From: Staphylothermus marinus F1
GTDB lineage: Archaea; Thermoproteota; Thermoprotei_A; Sulfolobales; Desulfurococcaceae
Assembly (NCBI RefSeq): GCF_000015945.1
Contig: NC_009033.1
Coordinates: forward strand, 1,320,001-1,352,000
DNA length: 32,000 bases
Direction of reading: 5' to 3'
Under the pieces are notes generated by a model. It saw nothing but the letters and a program-made list of their open reading frames with translations. It ran no database searches and had not been told where the DNA came from. Below, piece by piece: positions 10,013 through 18,629 of the stretch (position 1 is its first letter; the number at the start of each line of letters is the position of its first letter). The position numbers and the translations under genes are program-made.

Positions 10013-11155
10013 ATGGCAACTAGTGAGAGATTATTTGAGAAATTAAAGCCGTTATCACCTGGACAAGAGGAAATGAAGAAAGCGTTTATGAATAAAAACT
10101 ATGAGATCATAGGATTATTTGGGCCTACGGGGTCGGGTAAAAGCTTGTTCAGTGTAGTGTATAGTATCGATGCTGTATTGAATGGTGAGTACTCAAGATT
10201 CATATTGTCTAGGCCAATAGTTGATGTTGTAACAGGTAAAGAATTAACAACTGCAGATATTGGGCAACAATACTATGAATTAGCAACGAGTTATCTAAAA
10301 GACATATTGACAGGATTCGTTGAATGGGGGATCGTTAAGAACCTGCTTGATTCGGGAAAAATAGTTGTAGCAGACACACATTATCTGAGAGGCAGAACGT
10401 TTGATGATTCAATAATATTTCTAGACGATGCTCAGAGCATATCTCCTGAAAGCGCTGTCGAGATCATGATGAGGATTGGGCGGAACAGTAGATTTATCAT
10501 AGCTGGAGACCCTGTGTTTCAAAAACATCTATCGCAAAGTGATGGAGCATCGATGCTGAGAGAAATTCTTTTAGGAGAAGAAACTGCTAAAGTAATAGAT
10601 CTTGGATTAAAAGATATTGTTAGACCAGGTGCTAGGAGGGGGATTAGGCTCTTACTAGAAATAAGAATGAGGCGCAGATCTCTCAACGAAGCTGAGAAAC
10701 AAGTAATTGATTCAGCAAGGCTTCACGCTCCAGACGCTGATATAGTTACAGTTGTAGAATTTATTGATGAAAAGAAAACCTACAATATATTATCAGAAAA
10801 TGTTCCAGACGCACTAATAATTGTTAAGGAAGGCCATCTAGGAAGAATAATTGGTAGAGGAGGAGAGAGAATAGAAGCTATAGAAGCAGATACAGGATTA
10901 AAACTGAGAGCTGTAGAATTAACACTTGACTTTAAACCATTAATAAGAGCTATACATCCAGTAAGCTGGGTATACAAGTTTATAGCAGACGTTGATTTCG
11001 CAGGACCCGATCTAGCTGTGAAGGTAGAGACTGATGGATTCGGAGCATTCGTAGGCCAGAAAGGATTCCACGTGAAATTCCTAGATGCAGTAATGAGGAA
11101 GTTACTGGGTGTTGGCGTGAAAGCAAAGGAGATCGGTGGTAAACGGAGAAAATAA
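10013..11155 (+). CDS. PhoH-like ATPase fused to KH RNA-binding domains
   Basis: 380 aa. Walker A is GPTGSGKS and Walker B-like is IIFLDDAQ, with the PhoH-like IIAGDPVFQ. The C-terminal KH GxxG motifs are GRIIGRGGERIEAIE and GAFVGQKGFHVKFL. Confidence 0.75.
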   Translation: MATSERLFEKLKPLSPGQEEMKKAFMNKNYEIIGLFGPTGSGKSLFSVVYSIDAVLNGEYSRFILSRPIVDVVTGKELTTADIGQQYYELATSYLKDILTGFVEWGIVKNLLDSGKIVVADTHYLRGRTFDDSIIFLDDAQSISPESAVEIMMRIGRNSRFIIAGDPVFQKHLSQSDGASMLREILLGEETAKVIDLGLKDIVRPGARRGIRLLLEIRMRRRSLNEAEKQVIDSARLHAPDADIVTVVEFIDEKKTYNILSENVPDALIIVKEGHLGRIIGRGGERIEAIEADTGLKLRAVELTLDFKPLIRAIHPVSWVYKFIADVDFAGPDLAVKVETDGFGAFVGQKGFHVKFLDAVMRKLLGVGVKAKEIGGKRRK

Positions 11156-11157
11156 TA

Positions 11158-11422
11158 TAGACTATTTACTTATTTGGATACTATGATTGTTATTGGAAAT
11201 TATGAAAACTATTATTGTTTTGATGGATTAGTGGAGATCTCTTTTATAAACCCTCCTAACGTAACGGTTAATGGAATGCGGATGAAGGGCTCTAGGTGGT
11301 CTTGGTGGAGCCCCGATAACCCCCTCAATGAAGAGAGTGAAAACCCGATCCAAGAGGGGGAAGCCCCTGCAAATACTCATAACATCCAAAATAACCAAAA
11401 AATAAAGCACAGACAACCACAC
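11158..11422 (+). repeat. GC-rich dispersed element, copy A (unclassified; candidate sRNA gene or MITE)
   Basis: Homologous by direct reading to 13915-14176 (+) and 18447-18629 (-). Shared parts are the 5' block tagactatttacttatttggatactatgattgtt, tttataaa at 11243-11250, and the GC-rich core 11281-11370 with hairpins gggctc/gagccc and ccccctc/gaggggg. Confidence 0.8.
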
Positions 11423-11681
11423 CATGCTGGGAGGCTTTGAGCCCTGCTCCTATAACCCCTCACTACATCACTTAAATACGAACCACCATAAAAGTTTCCG
11501 TTAATCAACATAAACTACACTATCCATTACATGGATTTGTAGTGGCTATGTTTTATTTTATTATGGTATGGTCTTTGTTATGGTTGGTTATTTGTAATTA
11601 TGGAGAATAAATTCTTTTATGTGGAAACTGGGTTTACTATAACAATATAAAATAATGTATTGATAGGATAATCTCTAATGT

Positions 11682-13019
11682 ATGGACAGGATGTTTGGTG
11701 GGGATGTTATGGTTGAAAATGTAGTATGGTATCATATTGAGGATGTTTTGTCGGATGATTTTATTGGTAAAAAAGTTTGTGTTAGAGGCTGGATTTATCG
11801 TAGAAGTGTTGTTGGTGGGAAAGCTTTTGTTAGGGTGAGGGGTTCAACTGGAATTATACAAGTTGTTGTTGATCGGGAGAAGTGTGGGGAAGAAATAGTT
11901 AGGATACTTAAGGATATTGGTTTAGAAGCTAGTGTTATGACGTGTGGTGAGCTCGTTAAACAACCACGTGCTCCAGGCGGATACGAGGTTCACGCTGATT
12001 GGTTCAGGATAGTTGGTTATAGTAGAGATTTCCCGATCAAGGGTGGTGAGGGGATAGATTATTTATTAGATAATAGGCATCTCTGGATTAGAAGCCGAAA
12101 ACTAACAGAGATCATGAAGATCAAGCACAGTGTTCTCAAAGCTGGGAGAGAATACTTTGTAGAGAATGATTGGTGGGAAGTAACACCCCCAATACTGACA
12201 GCATCAGCTGTTGAGGGAGGAGCTACACTATTCCCCGTTAAATACTTTGATAAAACAGCTTATCTAAGCCAGAGCGCTCAACTATATCTTGAAGCCCTAA
12301 TATATAGTCTTGAAAAAGTATGGAGCCTCACAACTAGTTTTAGAGCGGAAAAATCACGTACACGTAGACACTTAGCAGAATACTGGCATTTAGAAGCAGA
12401 GGCTGCATGGTATAATATGGAGGATATGATGAGGGTAGCTGAAGAACTAGTAGCGTATATTGTTCAATACATTCTAGAACATAATAAGAGACAATTAGAG
12501 ATTCTAGGCAGAGACCTTAAAATATTGAAGAACTCCGTTGAACCACCATATCCTAGGATACGATATGATGAAGCAATAGAGATTCTACAGAAGAAAGGTG
12601 TTAATATTGAGTGGGGAGATGATCTGGGTGCTGATGAGGAGAGAGTTCTTACAATGGAGTTTGACAAACCATTCTTCATAACTCATTTCCCCAAGGAGAT
12701 TAAAAGCTTCTATATGAAGCTTGATCCAGAAAATGAAAAACTAGCTCTAGGATTCGATCTCTTAGCGCCGGAGGGATATGGTGAAATTATAGGTGGGAGC
12801 GAGCGTGAAGACGACTATAATAAATTGCTTAACAGAATAATTGAGCAAGGATATGATCCTGAAGACTACAAATGGTATCTTGATCTCAGAAAATATGGAT
12901 CAGTACCCCATAGTGGTTTCGGCTTAGGAATCGAGAGACTAGTTATGTGGATAGCTGGGCTAGACCATATTAGAGACGCTACACCATTCCCGAGATTTAG
13001 AGGTAGAATTTATCCATAA
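11682..13019 (+). CDS. asnS: Asparaginyl-tRNA synthetase (class IIb)
   Basis: The N-terminal OB anticodon-binding segment is VCVRGWIYRRSVVGGKAFVRVRG. Motif 2 is FRAEKSRTRRHLAEYWHLEAE (AsnRS-type HLAE-W-E) and motif 3 is GFGLGIERLVMWIAGLDHIRDATPFPR. The likely true start is ATG 11709 (MVENVVWYH), preceded by GGTGGGG. Confidence 0.75.
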   Translation: MDRMFGGDVMVENVVWYHIEDVLSDDFIGKKVCVRGWIYRRSVVGGKAFVRVRGSTGIIQVVVDREKCGEEIVRILKDIGLEASVMTCGELVKQPRAPGGYEVHADWFRIVGYSRDFPIKGGEGIDYLLDNRHLWIRSRKLTEIMKIKHSVLKAGREYFVENDWWEVTPPILTASAVEGGATLFPVKYFDKTAYLSQSAQLYLEALIYSLEKVWSLTTSFRAEKSRTRRHLAEYWHLEAEAAWYNMEDMMRVAEELVAYIVQYILEHNKRQLEILGRDLKILKNSVEPPYPRIRYDEAIEILQKKGVNIEWGDDLGADEERVLTMEFDKPFFITHFPKEIKSFYMKLDPENEKLALGFDLLAPEGYGEIIGGSEREDDYNKLLNRIIEQGYDPEDYKWYLDLRKYGSVPHSGFGLGIERLVMWIAGLDHIRDATPFPRFRGRIYP

Positions 13020-13022
13020 AAG

Positions 13023-13718
13023 GTGCTTTTATTGTCTCAGAGTATTGGAGAAGAAATAATAAGTATTCTCCGCAAACACTACAAGTTAAACCTGAAAGAA
13101 TTCATTGCTCCAAATATTCGTGATAAATCATTGTTTGAATACATTATTGGAGTTATGCTTAGCCAGAATACAAGCGATAAAAACGCTATTCGAGCCTATC
13201 TCAACCTTAAAAAGATATATGGAGAAATAACGCCCGAGAAAATCCTCTCTACATCCATAGAAAAATTAGTTGAAGCATTAAAACCTGCTGGAATGTATAA
13301 TCAAAGAGCTCAACGCATAGTCGAGTTAGCCAAAATATTTACAGAGAGAAACGTTAAGGAGGAGCTTAGAAAACTAGTAGAGGAGGGGAAACTTAGAGAA
13401 GCTAGAAAATACCTTGTCAACCTGCCAGGTGTTGGTTTAAAAACAGCTGATGTAGTCTTATTAATGTATTATAAACAACCAGTATTCCCTGTAGACACAC
13501 ATATTCGTAGAGTATCGAAGAGACTGGGATATATTGAAAAGGACAATTATGAAACCATATCCCGTTGGTGGATGAAACAATTAAAACCAAACGAATACCT
13601 AGAAGCACACCTCCTCCTAATAACGCATGGTAGAAAAACATGTAAAGCAAGAAAACCATTATGCGATAAATGTCCCATAAACAAGTATTGTAAATACTAT
13701 TGCAAAACAATCATATAA
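13023..13718 (+). CDS. nth: Endonuclease III / HhH-GPD DNA glycosylase with 4Fe-4S cluster
   Basis: 231 aa. The HhH motif is LPGVGLKTADVVLL, followed by VDTHIRRVSKRLG. The C-terminal Cys cluster is CKARKPLCDKCPINKYC. GTG start lies 3 nt after the asnS stop. Confidence 0.8.
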   Translation: MLLLSQSIGEEIISILRKHYKLNLKEFIAPNIRDKSLFEYIIGVMLSQNTSDKNAIRAYLNLKKIYGEITPEKILSTSIEKLVEALKPAGMYNQRAQRIVELAKIFTERNVKEELRKLVEEGKLREARKYLVNLPGVGLKTADVVLLMYYKQPVFPVDTHIRRVSKRLGYIEKDNYETISRWWMKQLKPNEYLEAHLLLITHGRKTCKARKPLCDKCPINKYCKYYCKTII

Positions 13719-13914
13719 TACTTCATTCTTAATACTATGCATCCTACTGATTATAATACAATGAATCAAACCAATATTGTATTGATAAGTTTGCCTAGAG
13801 AGCTTGTAAGTGGATTCAATAAGAGTATAATGATTACTGTTCTCAATAATAATACTGAGATACCTTTACCATATATTTATGCTCCCACTAAGAAGGAACA
13901 CATAAACTTCACAG

Positions 13915-14176
13915 TAGACTATTTGCTTATTTGGATATTATGGTTGTTTTGGAAATTGTGGAAATCATGATTGTTTTAATTATTGGGTTCGCTTTATAAA
14001 TCCTCACTAATATAATGGTTAATGGTTTAAAACTGCAGATGAAGGGCTCAAAGTGGTCTGTGTGGAGCCCCGATAGCCCCCTCAATGAAGGAGTGAAGCC
14101 CCAACCCAAGAGGGGGAAGCCCGTGCAGATATCCAAAATTTCCAAAACAACCAAAAAATAAAGCACGGGCAACCAC
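13915..14176 (+). repeat. GC-rich dispersed element, copy B (most intact copy)
   Basis: Same family as 11158-11422. tttataaa is at 13993-14000. Hairpins are gggctc/gagccc (14044-14049/14065-14070), ccccctc/gaggggg (14077-14083/14110-14116) and gcccgtgc/gcacgggc (14119-14126/14163-14170). A 21-nt inverted repeat pairs 13941-13961 with 14133-14153. Confidence 0.8.
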
Positions 14177-14206
14177 TATACATATAATGGTAGAAAATTA
14201 TCACAT

Positions 14207-14467
14207 ATGAGTTCTGTGGAAGCAAACAACTTGTTGAAAAACATATTAGATGGCGGGATTTCTACTAGTTCCGTAAAACCTGTAAGCATAGATTACAGCT
14301 TTCCTGTTAAGAATAAATCTTATGGAATACTTGTAGTTTTACCAAAGAAAAACATGAAACCCTCAAATTCCAGCTACAATGAATGGTTTAATGAAGCACT
14401 GAGACAAGGATTTACTCATAGATTAATATATAGATTCGACAACTATATTTTCTTATGTTTACTATAA
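14207..14467 (+). CDS. Small hypothetical protein
   Basis: 86-aa ORF with an ATG start, no recognisable motifs, and adjacent to repeat copy B. Coding status is uncertain. Confidence 0.3.
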   Translation: MSSVEANNLLKNILDGGISTSSVKPVSIDYSFPVKNKSYGILVVLPKKNMKPSNSSYNEWFNEALRQGFTHRLIYRFDNYIFLCLL

Positions 14468-14587
14468 ATTTAATGAATCCAGTGGTTCAGGATATGAATT
14501 ACCGGTTCTGAGATCCTCTAATAGATCATACGTATTCGATGCATATAGCTTGAAAAATCTATATCCATTATTGTTGTTAGGTTTTTA

Positions 14588-14812
14588 ATGGCTCCTATTA
14601 TATGTTATTGCCAAGTAGAAGCTGCAAATAATGCTTCAATCACATATTCTAATAGAGTGGTTATCTTTAATGCATTGATTTCATACTTATTATTGCTTGG
14701 CTTACCGGCTCTTACAATATTCTTTTCAACTTTACCGATCAGGATCTATATTGGTGAAAAATATTCTGGGAATAACTCTTTCTACAAACAAATATTTGTA
14801 GGAGAGAACTAG
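14588..14812 (+). CDS. Hypothetical membrane protein fragment (possible 5' part of a frameshifted gene)
   Basis: 74-aa ORF with one TM-like segment (ALISYLLLLGLPALTIFFSTL). The downstream ORF frame is already open before this ORF ends (see finding). Confidence 0.3.
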   Translation: MAPIICYCQVEAANNASITYSNRVVIFNALISYLLLLGLPALTIFFSTLPIRIYIGEKYSGNNSFYKQIFVGEN

Positions 14813-14877
14813 TTCTATTCTATATTACCTTCACTATAGTTTATCTTGTTTCTGCAATTGTCTTCTATATTATTAGC

Positions 14878-15300
14878 TTGATCCTTGATCCTTTTACTTA
14901 TGTAGAGACATACGCTATAGTATCCAATATTACAGTAGTCGGTCTTTTACTGTTTTCAGCTTATGTAAGCATGTATTCTGTCTGGGCTGTTTTAATAAAG
15001 AATAGGAGAAAAGCTTTTATGATCGGTTTATCATCTACTATAGTTGTAAGCATTATATCTCTTTTCGTAATGTTTACTATTAATGTATTATTTGGTAGAT
15101 TTTACTTTTTTAAATGTGATCCTGCTAGTTATGGAATCGAGGTTTTAAACCCGTATACTCAGAGTATTGCAGATGCTAACAGCATATATCTTTCACGTCT
15201 AGTAGCCAATATGTTGTGGATAATATTGTTTTTGCAGAGATATTATTATGAACTAGAATCTCAGCGTATCCCATTAGATCTGCTTAAATCTCTCGTTTAA
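14878..15300 (+). CDS. Hypothetical polytopic membrane protein
   Basis: 140 aa with about 4 hydrophobic helices and a TTG start. The reading frame is open upstream from 14776 and encodes a further TM-like segment without a start codon. Confidence 0.45.
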   Translation: MILDPFTYVETYAIVSNITVVGLLLFSAYVSMYSVWAVLIKNRRKAFMIGLSSTIVVSIISLFVMFTINVLFGRFYFFKCDPASYGIEVLNPYTQSIADANSIYLSRLVANMLWIILFLQRYYYELESQRIPLDLLKSLV

Positions 15301-16257
15301 GTATATATTTCCTCTCCAATGGTATCCTAGTGCTTCCCAGTAGCCATCAACATATTTATTTGTGAAAATTATTTTTTCCACCCATTTCGCACTCTTCCAT
15401 CCATAGAGGTGTGGAATAATTATTCTTGCCGGAAAACCTTGCTCAAGCGGTAATGGTTTACCATTCATTTTCAAGGCTAGAATCGAATTATTAAATACGA
15501 AGTCTTCGTAGGGGATAATTGTTGTGTATCCATCAAGAGATACTATATAAACCCATTTCACTCCAGGCTTAATTCTAGCTTCTTCAGCAAACCTTCTCAG
15601 AGGAACCCCTGTCCATTCAACATCTTTCACACTCCACCCTGTAACGCAGTGGAAATCTGTTTTAATAGTAATGTGTTCCATTCTAAGAAGGTCTTCATAC
15701 TTGTATCTAAGCTCTTTTTCTACTTCTCCAGTTATCTTCAAAGACCACTCATTTATTCTTATATAGGGTTGTCCAAGGATACGGTATATTATGAAGCTAG
15801 GAATAAATCTTTGACCAGGCGGTGTTTTCCCATATTCTTTAACTGATTTCTCAATAACTGTTTGTTTAGTAAATAAAGTGTTCAGCTTCTCAATTTCTGG
15901 AAGACTTGTCTTAGTTTTTTCTATATATTTTTCTCCAATAGTGAAAACTATCATTATTAACTTATTCCTCCTTGTTACCGCTCTTATACCAATATATCCT
16001 TTCCTATCCAAGCAGTTCAAATGATAACTATAAATAATAAATTCATCATTTATCGGTTCGTTGTCTACGAATTCTAAACTGCACTCATCATTGTCTAATG
16101 TGAAGATGCGGGTTGAATACTCCCATATTAATGGTTTTAGGATAGAATAATTTATTTCATCGTATTCCTTGTTGATAAAGCATTGGATTACCTTCACAAT
16201 ACCCTTCTTATATAAGCCTGGAGAACTTGTGGATATGCAATTCAAATATTTCACCAA
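15274..16257 (-). CDS. Molybdopterin-dependent oxidoreductase (sulfite oxidase / YedY-MsrP-like Mo-co domain) with unknown N-terminal extension
   Basis: 327 aa. The C-terminal ~190 aa carry PPGQRFIPSF...W.LKITGEVE...DFHCVTGWSVKDVEWTGVPLRRF...GFPARIIIPHLYGWKSAKWV, typical of the Oxidored_molyb domain. The N-terminal ~140 aa are unrecognised. No signal peptide seen. Confidence 0.7.
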   Translation of the reverse strand: MVKYLNCISTSSPGLYKKGIVKVIQCFINKEYDEINYSILKPLIWEYSTRIFTLDNDECSLEFVDNEPINDEFIIYSYHLNCLDRKGYIGIRAVTRRNKLIMIVFTIGEKYIEKTKTSLPEIEKLNTLFTKQTVIEKSVKEYGKTPPGQRFIPSFIIYRILGQPYIRINEWSLKITGEVEKELRYKYEDLLRMEHITIKTDFHCVTGWSVKDVEWTGVPLRRFAEEARIKPGVKWVYIVSLDGYTTIIPYEDFVFNNSILALKMNGKPLPLEQGFPARIIIPHLYGWKSAKWVEKIIFTNKYVDGYWEALGYHWRGNIYLNERFKQI

Positions 16258-16315
16258 AATAAATACTATACTATTAGGAATATTAAGGTAATTAGAGTAT
16301 TTTTAGTGTTTATAG

Positions 16316-17551
16316 TTGAAACACCGTATAGTTATGAATTATTATATGGGTGAATATAAGAGGATGATGAGGAGTTTAAAAGAACTAGGAAGTGAGAAGA
16401 AGACAACTCTGCTCTCCCTATATATTTACACATTTATCCGTGGCGCTGGTAGAGCTAGTTATATGTTCTTGTATCCTTTATTCCTCATAAGCATAGGGTA
16501 CTCAACGAAGGATTTGGGTTCGATAGCGACTATTGCTTCTGCTCTTATCATACTTATACTCCCAATTGTAGGCCATCTTGTTGATCTTGGATGGGCAATT
16601 GAAGTATTGTTTTTGTCTGGTTTATCTATGTCTTTAGCATTGATATTACCGGTTGTTTATCCGAGTTTTTACTCATTAGTAATATCTTATGCATTAAATA
16701 TGCTCAGCTTATATCTATGGTCTCCCTCGAGAAATAAGATCATAGGTACTATTATTCCCCAGATATTGCTTGGTAGAGTTTATAGTTTATTTGTGATCTT
16801 GTTTAACTCGTCTAGAACCGTAACCCCCTTTATACTGGGCAGATTAACTGAGACAATTGGTTATGGATACTTGATGATTTGGATGGGGATTTTTAGTCTT
16901 GCAGGAACAATTATAGTCTATGTGATTCTTATTCTTCGACAAAATATGTTTTCACGTACATCTATTGGAAGAGCCGATATTATTAATAGCTATAAGGTTA
17001 TGTTCATGTTTGATAAAAGCGTAATAACTATTGTATTATTTGCTTTAATTGATAGTTTTGCTTGGAGGCTTTGGTTTCCATTATTGAATGCTTATTTAAA
17101 AGAATATAGGGGGCTTGCTGATCCTATTATTGGTGATTATAACACTGTTATCGGGTTATCTATGTTGGTGACTTCATATTTTGCAGGCGTTATTACGGAT
17201 AAGATTAAGCCTGTAAAATCCCTTATAACATATGAGTTGATAGGAGCGGCTGGCATTCTCTTAATCAATCTTCCTTATCCATATATTCATTTATCAGCAT
17301 TACTTATAGGATTCAGCATTGCTTTCTGGGTTTCAGCATATAATACATTAGTCACGATCATGTATGGTATCGAGAAGATAGGTAGATTAAGAGTATTAAC
17401 TGATTCTGCAAGAAATATTTCATCCATACCAGCACCGCAGATAGGAGGTTATTTAATGTCTATTGATCCACTAATAACATTTATTATGAGCGCACTTCTC
17501 ATGTTAATTGCTATTATGCCTCTGAGAAAAATAAGAGTGAAAACTAGTTAG
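16316..17551 (+). CDS. MFS-type transporter
   Basis: 411 aa with about 12 hydrophobic segments in two halves and a central basic loop. TTG start is uncertain (the MRSLKELG Met is also possible). Confidence 0.65.
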   Translation: MKHRIVMNYYMGEYKRMMRSLKELGSEKKTTLLSLYIYTFIRGAGRASYMFLYPLFLISIGYSTKDLGSIATIASALIILILPIVGHLVDLGWAIEVLFLSGLSMSLALILPVVYPSFYSLVISYALNMLSLYLWSPSRNKIIGTIIPQILLGRVYSLFVILFNSSRTVTPFILGRLTETIGYGYLMIWMGIFSLAGTIIVYVILILRQNMFSRTSIGRADIINSYKVMFMFDKSVITIVLFALIDSFAWRLWFPLLNAYLKEYRGLADPIIGDYNTVIGLSMLVTSYFAGVITDKIKPVKSLITYELIGAAGILLINLPYPYIHLSALLIGFSIAFWVSAYNTLVTIMYGIEKIGRLRVLTDSARNISSIPAPQIGGYLMSIDPLITFIMSALLMLIAIMPLRKIRVKTS

Positions 17552-17569
17552 TAACTGTGGTGCTACTAG

Positions 17570-18430
17570 TTGACGAGAGGTAAGCTTCTTAAAAAACTAG
17601 CTATAAAGGTGTTGGGCGAGGAAAAGGCGAGGAAAATATGGGGTAGAATAGAGATTATTGGGGATATAGCTATTATACGTGTACCATTTGATATTGATCC
17701 CTACGAACTGAAACCATTAGCTGAAACAATAGTTGAGGAGCTAAAATATGTTAAGAGTGTCTGGGCAGGATTACCAGGTGTTAAGGGGCCTTATAGGCTT
17801 AGACCGTTTATCCACTTAGCTGGTGAAGATAGAAGTGAAACAATATATAAAGAGCATGGATGCTTATTCAAAATAGACATCACTAAGGTATATGTATCAC
17901 CTACTCTCAACTACGAACATAAAAGAATAGCACAACTAGTTAAGCCTGGAGAAATAATTACAAACATGTTCGCTGGTGCAGGTTTTTTCAGCATAATCAT
18001 TGCTCGCTATTCTAAGCCGAAAAAAGTATATAGTATAGATATAAATCCACATGCTTACCGTTACATGGTTGAAAATATAAGGCTTAACAAAGTTGAAGAC
18101 ATAGTTGTGCCTCTTATGGGAGATGCTGCTAAGGTGATCGAAGAAAAACTAGTTAATACAAGTGATAGAGTATTAATGCCTTATCCCGAACTAGCTCTTG
18201 ACTACTTGGTTTATGCATTAAAAGCTTTAAGGAATAGGAGAGGCTGGATACATATCTACCTACACATTGTAGCAGATAAGAGTTCTTCTCCACTAGATAT
18301 TGCTGAAAACATTTTAAAAAATAAGCTTCAAGATTTAAGTGTTAAAAAATTCGATATTATGAATAAGAGGATTGTTAGAACGATTGGGCCGAGAAAATAC
18401 CAAGTAGTATTAGATGTTCATATATATTAG
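17570..18430 (+). CDS. Trm5/Taw2-family class I SAM-dependent tRNA modification enzyme (m1G37 / wyosine pathway)
   Basis: 286 aa. The SAM-binding motif is ITNMFAGAGFFSI, followed by SIDINPHAYRYMVENIRLNKVED. Size and layout resemble archaeal Taw2/Trm5 without the D1 domain. The precise activity cannot be assigned. Confidence 0.7.
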   Translation: MTRGKLLKKLAIKVLGEEKARKIWGRIEIIGDIAIIRVPFDIDPYELKPLAETIVEELKYVKSVWAGLPGVKGPYRLRPFIHLAGEDRSETIYKEHGCLFKIDITKVYVSPTLNYEHKRIAQLVKPGEIITNMFAGAGFFSIIIARYSKPKKVYSIDINPHAYRYMVENIRLNKVEDIVVPLMGDAAKVIEEKLVNTSDRVLMPYPELALDYLVYALKALRNRRGWIHIYLHIVADKSSSPLDIAENILKNKLQDLSVKKFDIMNKRIVRTIGPRKYQVVLDVHIY

Positions 18431-18446
18431 CATCACCAACTCCTAG

Positions 18447-18629
18447 TGTGTTTGCCCATGCTTTATTATTTGCAGGGGCTTCCCCCTCTTGGGTCGGGTT
18501 TTTCACTCTCTTCATCGTGGGGGTTATTGGGGCTCCAAGGAGAAACTCTCACCCCTCAACCCCCACCAATAAAAAGAACACATAAACACCACAAAAACAA
18601 CCATAATATCCAAACAAGCGAATAGGCTC
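18447..18629 (-). repeat. GC-rich dispersed element, copy C (inverted, internally shortened)
   Basis: The reverse complement aligns with copies A and B: cctattcgcttgtttggatattatggttg ... ggagccccaataacccccacgatgaagagagtgaaaaacccgacccaagagggggaagcccctgcaaataataaagcatgggcaaacac. It fills the convergent spacer between 17570..18430 and 18651..19226. Confidence 0.8.

Follow-up and report, generated by a model that had tools for sequence, protein, structure and literature searches.

A member of the ~260-nt MITE family of Staphylothermus marinus F1: its empty site in a sister strain, ends resembling those of IS607, and a chromosomal inversion between two further copies

In the genome paper of the hyperthermophilic archaeon Staphylothermus marinus F1 (Anderson et al. 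2009, BMC Genomics 10:145, PMC2678158), a repeat of ~260 nt, present in 14 copies and bordered by inverted repeats, was described as probable MITEs. In the part of that text used here, the MITEs are similar to DNA upstream of four ORFs of the IS607 family, to which all of the IS elements of the strain (5/5) were assigned; Smar_0846, the only IS607 orfA in F1, is given as a truncated pseudogene; and two genes are listed as disrupted by MITEs, namely Smar_0733 and Smar_0327/0328. The chromosome has 1,570,485 bp (Table 1 of that paper) and a G+C content of 35.7%. Members of the IS607 family have unrelated termini and an imperfect inverted repeat that is unequally spaced from the two ends, and each end has 9-bp direct repeats in helical phase within ~10-60 bp (Chen et al. 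2018, PMC6188088). According to the same paper, there is no clear target duplication, the empty site is scarless, terminus and target share a short identity, and the known exchange sites are GG. The omega-RNAs of IS607 elements overlap the right end of the element. PATE-like elements of the IS200/IS605 type 'often encode omega-RNAs', which serve in trans (Meers et al. 2023, PMC10055086).

The window analysed here, by which we mean the whole stretch of 32,000 nucleotides from S. marinus F1, has a G+C content of 35.4% (vs 35.7% in the genome) and contains three copies of a repeated element, which are called A, B and C, the last being degenerate and inverted. Two further F1 copies, Smar_0453 and Smar_0580, were found elsewhere in the genome as translations, through an exhaustive search of representative proteins. 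The IS copies of F1 (Smar_0083, Smar_0767, Smar_1150, Smar_1546 and Smar_0846/0847) are all located outside the window, and the flanking chromosomal genes are ordinary (PhoH-KH, AspRS, endonuclease III, TYW2/Trm5, a GNAT acetyltransferase and genes of the CoA pathway). The coordinates of the features are given in Table 1.

Table 1. Positions of copies A, B and C, of the parts of copy B and of the gene split by it (window coordinates)
Feature	Position	Strand	Basis or remark
Copy A, full-length, 81% identical to B, arms decayed	11166..11425	+	between the PhoH-KH and AspRS genes
Disrupted gene, N-terminal 62 codons (part of ORF 13737-13970)	13737..13922	+	intact ORF in L001 and L030
Left flank TAGACTAT, target DNA (transposon-adjacent motif), outside the insertion	13915..13922	+	present in the empty-site allele
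Copy B, inserted segment, 258 nt	13923..14180	+	window aligned to the empty site in L001 and L030
Left arm, four head-to-tail units: TTTGGATAT TATGGTTGT TTTGGAAAT TGTGGAAAT	13930..13965	+	motif phasing
TTTATAAA, archaeal TATA-box-like motif (putative promoter)	13993..14000	+	kept in A and in the L001 copy
GC-rich core, 60% GC vs 35% in the genome	14033..14128	+	predicted fold, a three-way junction
8-bp GC stem around the right arm	14119..14170 (14119-14126 / 14163-14170)	+	repeat finder, direct check
Right arm, three head-to-tail units: TTTGGTTGT TTTGGAAAT TTTGGATAT	14129..14155	-	motif phasing
Right terminus CAACCACTAT	14171..14180	+	right ends of A, C and L030; Smar_0453 and P0002 by back-translation
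Disrupted gene, downstream part including annotated ORF 14207-14467	14181..14467	+	intact ORF in L001 and L030
Copy C, inverted, degenerate	18443..18621	-	lacks the TATA box, P1, the 5' strand of P2 and the right arm

Logan contigs encoding proteins identical to those of the window were used for comparison. Two of them, L001 (from SRR5453780) and L030 (from ERR15087768), come from different sequencing runs and are independent assemblies; their identity is 98.6-99.3% with the window and 99.95% between the two. Copy B is absent from both, and the same flanks are joined there as TAGACTAT/ACATAT, window position 13922 passing directly to ~14180. The empty site reads ...TTCACAGTAGACTAT/ACATATAATGG..., compared with TAGACTAT(TTGCTTATTTGG...GCAACCACTAT)ACATAT in the window, where the parentheses enclose the insertion. 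The preliminary description of this DNA had favoured a DNA-level reading of the arms, as those of a MITE, and had pointed to an empty site in related strains as a means of checking it. Such a site now exists in two independent assemblies of a 99%-identical strain, and this, together with the 2009 genome paper, supports the MITE reading. Three contigs of a further run, SRR4046664 (L002, L027 and L028), match the window without a difference (100% identity) and break off within the repeats. Copy B, filled in F1 and empty in L001 and L030, is the one polymorphic site found, and it represents direct population evidence of recent movement of the element. It is unlikely that the empty site is a deletion artefact, given the two independent assemblies and an intact ORF of 182 codons that spans the empty junction in both L001 and L030.

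This ORF continues in frame from the 62 codons of ORF 13737-13970 into ORF 14207-14467, which establishes copy B as an insertion that split a gene. ORF 13737-13970, previously suspected of being an insertion-truncated remnant, is therefore exactly that, its first 62 codons matching the intact ORF. The element does supply the stop codon of this remnant, as had been proposed, but the boundaries given by the empty site assign to the element only 15 of its codons and not ~18. ORF 13927-14172 on the minus strand is an artefact, as had also been suspected, because it lies wholly within the element and a search of 5.8 billion proteins with this frame gave no match. The 86-aa fragment annotated in F1 clusters with the intact protein of the sister strain. 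Neither a Pfam domain nor a homologue outside the strain was found for the 182-aa product; the gene is an orphan, whose reality rests on its length and in-frame continuity. In F1 the split gene has gained one T near 14453 and lost 67 bp at ~14520 (window 14440-14525 vs L030 2895-3045), both changes being decay that followed the disruption.

Two other F1 ORFs, 14588-14812 and 14878-15300, match longer genes of the other strain (182 and 242 aa), and may be fragments too. Several 'hypothetical proteins' of F1 (11174-11440, 14207-14467, Smar_0453 and Smar_0580) are translated MITE copies or gene fragments made by MITEs, and hence annotation artefacts.

Taken as a whole, copy B is very probably a non-autonomous transposable element of the reported ~260-nt probable-MITE family. 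It agrees with the F1 MITEs of PMC2678158 in organism, size and multi-copy state, as these are given in the part of the paper used here, so that one family is concerned. The internal ORF frames of the 258-nt insertion differ between subfamilies. Copy B is thus a member of the family published in 2009, and its detection here is a rediscovery of a real but ordinary transposon insertion. The same part of the 2009 text has no mention of the 182-codon ORF split by copy B, nor of the empty site, the 9-bp arrays, the internal TATA box, the GC-rich core, the short and long forms and the inversion, which are treated in the present study.

The inverted repeats described previously are genuine. The 21 nucleotides at 13941-13961 (TGGTTGTTTTGGAAATTGTGG) match the reverse complement of 14133-14153 at 20 positions (20/21), and a repeat finder gives a longer pairing of 32 nt at 88% (13935-13966 / 14128-14159). 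When 13915-14176 was shuffled 1000 times with dinucleotides preserved, 20/21 was never attained: the best match, 19, came up once, and all others were 17 or less. The motif TTGGAWAT, previously stated to recur three times in 13931-13965, has only two exact matches on the plus strand (13931 and 13949), the third being GTGGAAAT. The true unit of the arms is a 9-mer, TNTGGWWRT, and the units of the left arm start at 13930, 13939, 13948 and 13957, with a fifth, degenerate unit reaching to 13974. This motif has 23 matches in the window, 12 of which are within copies A, B and C; since it was derived from the element itself, the strict 9-bp phasing is informative and the match count is not.

Thus, the 'TIRs' of the preliminary description form a strong inverted repeat in copy B but are subterminal, lying 7 nt (left) and 25 nt (right) from the junctions; its 'iteron-like' repeats are indeed head-to-tail repeats, but they are the same feature as the TIRs, with a unit of 9 bp. 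Because the arms resolve into phased 9-bp arrays of IS607-like layout, we infer that the 21-nt inverted repeat and the 'iterons' are one feature, putative transposase-binding arrays. Explaining the inverted repeats as IS607-type 9-bp arrays of putative binding sites is a modest but concrete addition. The two termini themselves are unrelated (TTGCTTA... on the left and ...CAACCACTAT on the right).

The other reading considered in the preliminary description was that the arms form a long closing helix of an RNA domain; the repeat family would then consist of RNA genes and not of a mobile element. The whole 262 nt does fold with the arms paired (z = -2.05). However, the TATA-like box lies between the arms; the arms are 9-bp direct-repeat arrays; their pairing is decayed in copy A, where the best inverted match is 16/21; the right arm is absent from copy C, the L001 copy, Smar_0453 and the translated relative P0002; and the insertion is polymorphic and disrupts a gene. 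An RNA-only origin of the family is thus extremely improbable, and the empty site and the copies without one arm effectively refute it.

To the right of copy A there is a GC-rich stretch (11426-11480; GCTGGGAGGCTTTGAGCCCTGCTCC...), and a 17-nt tandem repeat at 11540-11600 is rich in TATGGT/TATGGTTGG motifs, like the 9-bp arm units. This may represent what is left of a further element end, situated upstream of AspRS.

The placement of copy B is ambiguous by 5 nt, because ACTAT stands at 13918-13922 as well as at 14176-14180, against a single ACTAT in the empty site. The left 8-mer TAGACTAT also flanks copy A in identical form (11158-11165) and, being present in the empty site as well, reflects a target preference and is not element sequence. 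Copy C has GAGCCTAT as its left flank (18622-18629, minus strand). The consensus of the right terminus in the family is CAACCACACCAT, found in A, L030 and P0002 (the last by back-translation); Smar_0453 ends in ...ACCAG and copy C in ...ACTAG. Since the right ACTAT of copy B aligns with this family terminus (ACCAT/ACTAG in A, C, P0002 and Smar_0453), B is provisionally read, on three DNA junction pairs, as an insertion without duplication beside a target motif like its own right terminus (ACYAT). Alternatively, the ACTAT on both sides of copy B would be a 5-bp target duplication, a reading that retains some chance with the same three junction pairs; no target duplication was seen at copies A and C. 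In these three junction pairs, AT ends the left flank in A, B and C; it also ends the right terminus in A, B and P0002, where C and Smar_0453 have AG.

Judged against the description in PMC6188088, the ends of copy B have the IS607 layout, and direct-repeat arrays, as putative binding sites, are present in both ends (four plus-strand and three minus-strand units). This comparison suggests that the ends of the element have the architecture of the IS607 family, that of serine transposases. The element would then be mobilised in trans by an IS607-type TnpA, which would act at an AT-containing exchange site and leave a scarless empty site. The window contains no TnpA, and no TnpB-like ORF was found in the window, in the comparison loci or in 10 kb walked leftward. 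Against IS607-type mobilisation stand the truncation of Smar_0846, the only F1 orfA in the part of the genome paper used here, and a candidate exchange sequence that contains AT and not GG. Short forms without the right arm exist at several loci, which is awkward if this arm is needed for transposition; they could have come about by gene conversion between copies.

As previously reported, a TATA-like box lies inside the inverted repeats. Its sequence, TTTATAAA, has three occurrences in the window, two of which are those of copy B and, at the homologous place, copy A (11243-11250). The spacer around the box is only 71% conserved, and the box is kept in A, B and the L001 copy. The putative promoter would be followed, ~25-35 nt downstream, by the GC-rich core, predicted to be foldable and oriented toward the right end. 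With transcription putative, box and core would most simply be a promoter and leader, or RNA material, inherited from a parent IS.

The predicted helices of the core are P1 (14033-14037/14124-14128), P2 (14044-14049/14065-14070; GGGCUC/GAGCCC) and P3 (14077-14083/14109-14115; CCCCCUC/GAGGGGG). Between copies A and B, the core is the best-conserved segment, with 87% identity compared with 79-82% in the arms. Its folding z-scores are -2.1 (B) and -0.5 (A), and none of the 26 predicted pairs (0/26) has a compensatory change, a negative of limited weight, since the copies differ so little. No Rfam family was matched at the gathering score, and at E<=10 only a spurious lncRNA match was obtained for 11100-14300; a scan for tRNA and tmRNA found none. 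Together, these predictions are a weak indication of RNA structure in the core. The sequence AUGAAG occurs twice (14038-14044 and 14085-14091), each time after the 5' strand of a predicted helix (P1, P3) and with GA/AA opposite; these motifs loosely resemble K-turn signatures, and C/D-box and small-protein readings of them were also weighed from the sequence.

The 8-bp GC stem had likewise been described correctly: GCCCGTGC at 14119-14126 is perfectly complementary to GCACGGGC at 14163-14170, and the two enclose the right arm. In the short-form copies (C, L001, P0002 and Smar_0453), 7-8 of the 8 bp are kept and the loop has only 8-10 nt, and in copy A the stem is broken (5/8 bp). Long and short right ends, with the array in or out of the loop of the GC hairpin, are found in both subfamilies and at several loci (14119-14170; 18455-18480; Smar_0453 and P0002). 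Repeated deletions in the hairpin loop, gene conversion and transposition of short forms are possible origins of the two forms. The subfamilies, A, C, L001 and P0002 on the one hand and B, Smar_0453 and Smar_0580 on the other, differ by a 1-nt indel, after which the frames diverge (following ...PLNE). Indels of 1 nt and 9 nt in the core vary among the copies.

Under one reading of this region, the TATA box and core are what remains of a parent IS whose ORF was deleted, namely its promoter and 5' leader, and have no function of their own in the MITE. Such a passive remnant would agree with the similarity published for DNA upstream of the IS ORFs, although the part of PMC2678158 used here does not give the portion of the MITE that this similarity covers. 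The reading is also favoured by copy C and the L030 copy upstream of AspRS, which persist without the TATA box, P1 and P2, and by core indels that differ from copy to copy. Yet the core is more conserved than the arms, and a leader as rich in GC as this would be unusual in a lineage in which most mRNAs are leaderless. On balance, we give a functionless remnant somewhat less than an even chance.

Under a second reading, which is compatible with mobility of the element, the TATA box would drive a guide RNA whose GC-rich scaffold continues, by way of the GC hairpin, past the right end of the element and into the flank. The four single-ORF IS copies would supply a TnpB (OrfB) that uses this transcript in trans as an omega-RNA-type guide, and cleavage of the element's own empty site, with the left-flank motif as TAM, would favour its retention. 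Box, core and hairpin are all oriented to the right end, and no T-run of at least 4 interrupts the plus strand between the TATA box and the right junction (TTTATTTTTT is on the minus strand of the right arm). The distance from the box to the end is ~125 nt in the short form and ~155 nt in the long form; orientation and length are compatible with an omega-RNA, and compatible only. A guide RNA would also agree with the best-conserved, 60% GC core, with the retention of 7-8 of the 8 bp of the GC stem in short forms that lost the arm inside the loop, with the conservation of the left-flank motif in the manner of a TAM, and with the precedents of IS607 and PATE-like omega-RNAs. Against it, the published MITE similarity, in the part of PMC2678158 used here, is upstream and not downstream of the IS ORFs. 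No Rfam family was found even at E<=10, covariation is lacking, the fold z-scores are low in magnitude (-2.1 in B, -0.5 in A), and the stem is broken in copy A (5/8 bp). That the IS ORFs are TnpB is deduced from the wording of the cited part of PMC2678158.

We regard the guide-RNA reading as doubtful. A little less probable still is its fullest version, in which the element is a portable, self-promoted guide-RNA gene, each copy programming the TnpB nucleases of solo ISs against its own empty site. Its last scaffold hairpin would hold the putative transposase-binding array in its loop, making the element an orphan guide-RNA MITE of a hyperthermophilic archaeon. If the core were a guide RNA of TnpB, natural gene-less, self-promoted guide-RNA elements would exist in archaea, with scaffolds stable at ~90 °C.

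The core might instead encode a short leaderless peptide (MRMKGSKWSVWSPDNPLNEESE...). An ATG is situated ~24-26 nt past the TATA box in copy A and L001, and the frame is open in A, P0002 and L001, the 9-nt deletion of L001 being in frame. However, B, Smar_0453 and Smar_0580 carry a 1-nt deletion and continue in another frame after ...PLNE. Of the codon differences between A and B in the shared part, 3/4 are non-synonymous; GC-rich codons are atypical of a genome with 35% GC, and open frames are expected in GC-rich DNA. Only four translated relatives were found among 1.84 billion representative proteins, all of them copies of the element. Because the subfamilies read the core in different frames, the core is judged not to be protein-coding; a coding role is unlikely, and a small protein very unlikely.

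The element family appears to be confined to S. marinus and close relatives. A search of GTDB genomes with the DNA pattern GAGTGAAN{8,12}CCAAGAGGGGGAA gave 0 matches. In JGI metagenomes the same pattern had 3 matches, which were rejected as unrelated GC-rich DNA by alignment. Scans of viral contigs gave 0 matches, no match to the element was found by blastn in phage and plasmid collections, and blastn and nhmmer found no copies at 20 AspRS loci of related Desulfurococcaceae. A protein search with the spurious plus-strand frame returned only P0002.

The 262-nt stretch at copy B (13915-14176) recurs at 11158-11420, its left flank included, as copy A, with 81% identity. Window positions 11376-18537 (7.1 kb, from AspRS to TYW2) are inverted in F1 compared with L001 and L030, and both reciprocal junctions were recovered (L001 7146-7378; L030 1-135 and 6982-7214). 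In the sister strain, the copy between TYW2 and PhoH consists of the left part of A and a short right end, and the copy upstream of AspRS consists of the left part of C and the right arm of A. Recombination within the GC-rich core between copies A and C, which lie inverted to each other, reversed a 7.1-kb segment of the F1 chromosome and made copy A seem complete and copy C doubly defective. In related Desulfurococcaceae the order is GNAT-AspRS-EndoIII...TYW2, followed by PhoH on the opposite strand, and there is no element in the corresponding intergenic gaps, which are 20-100 nt. Since the relatives share this gene order with L030, the F1 order is derived, and a chromosomal inversion caused by two MITE copies is documented.

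In a patch of 55 nt, copy A (11245-11300) differs from L001 (7232-7280) by ~14 substitutions and a 9-nt indel, amid surroundings that are 99% identical. This patch, between the TATA box and P2, looks like gene conversion from another copy, because the F1 version is nearer to copy B.

The Sulfolobus MITEs SM1-SM4 are archaeal, short, non-coding and multi-copy, as is the present element, which they are not known to resemble in sequence. They are said, in work by Redder, She and Garrett in 2001, to be mobilised in trans, and reportedly have true terminal inverted repeats and duplications that match ISC elements of the DDE type; the ends of the S. marinus element differ from these. Like the PATE-like IS200/IS605 elements, it would be a gene-less derivative of a TnpB-associated transposon; its left junction has a motif on the target side, and a region predicted to be structured runs to its right end. 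Ends of the IS605 type, however, are subterminal hairpins cut by a Y1 transposase, whereas those of the present element are repeat arrays. The junctions of copy B resemble the TAM/TEM-like situation of TnpB-associated transposons. With the IS607 family the element shares unrelated termini, an imperfect inverted repeat at unequal distances from the ends, 9-bp direct-repeat arrays and probably a scarless empty site without clear target duplication and a short identity between terminus and target; it differs in having no coding capacity and in a candidate exchange sequence that contains AT (ACYAT) in place of GG.
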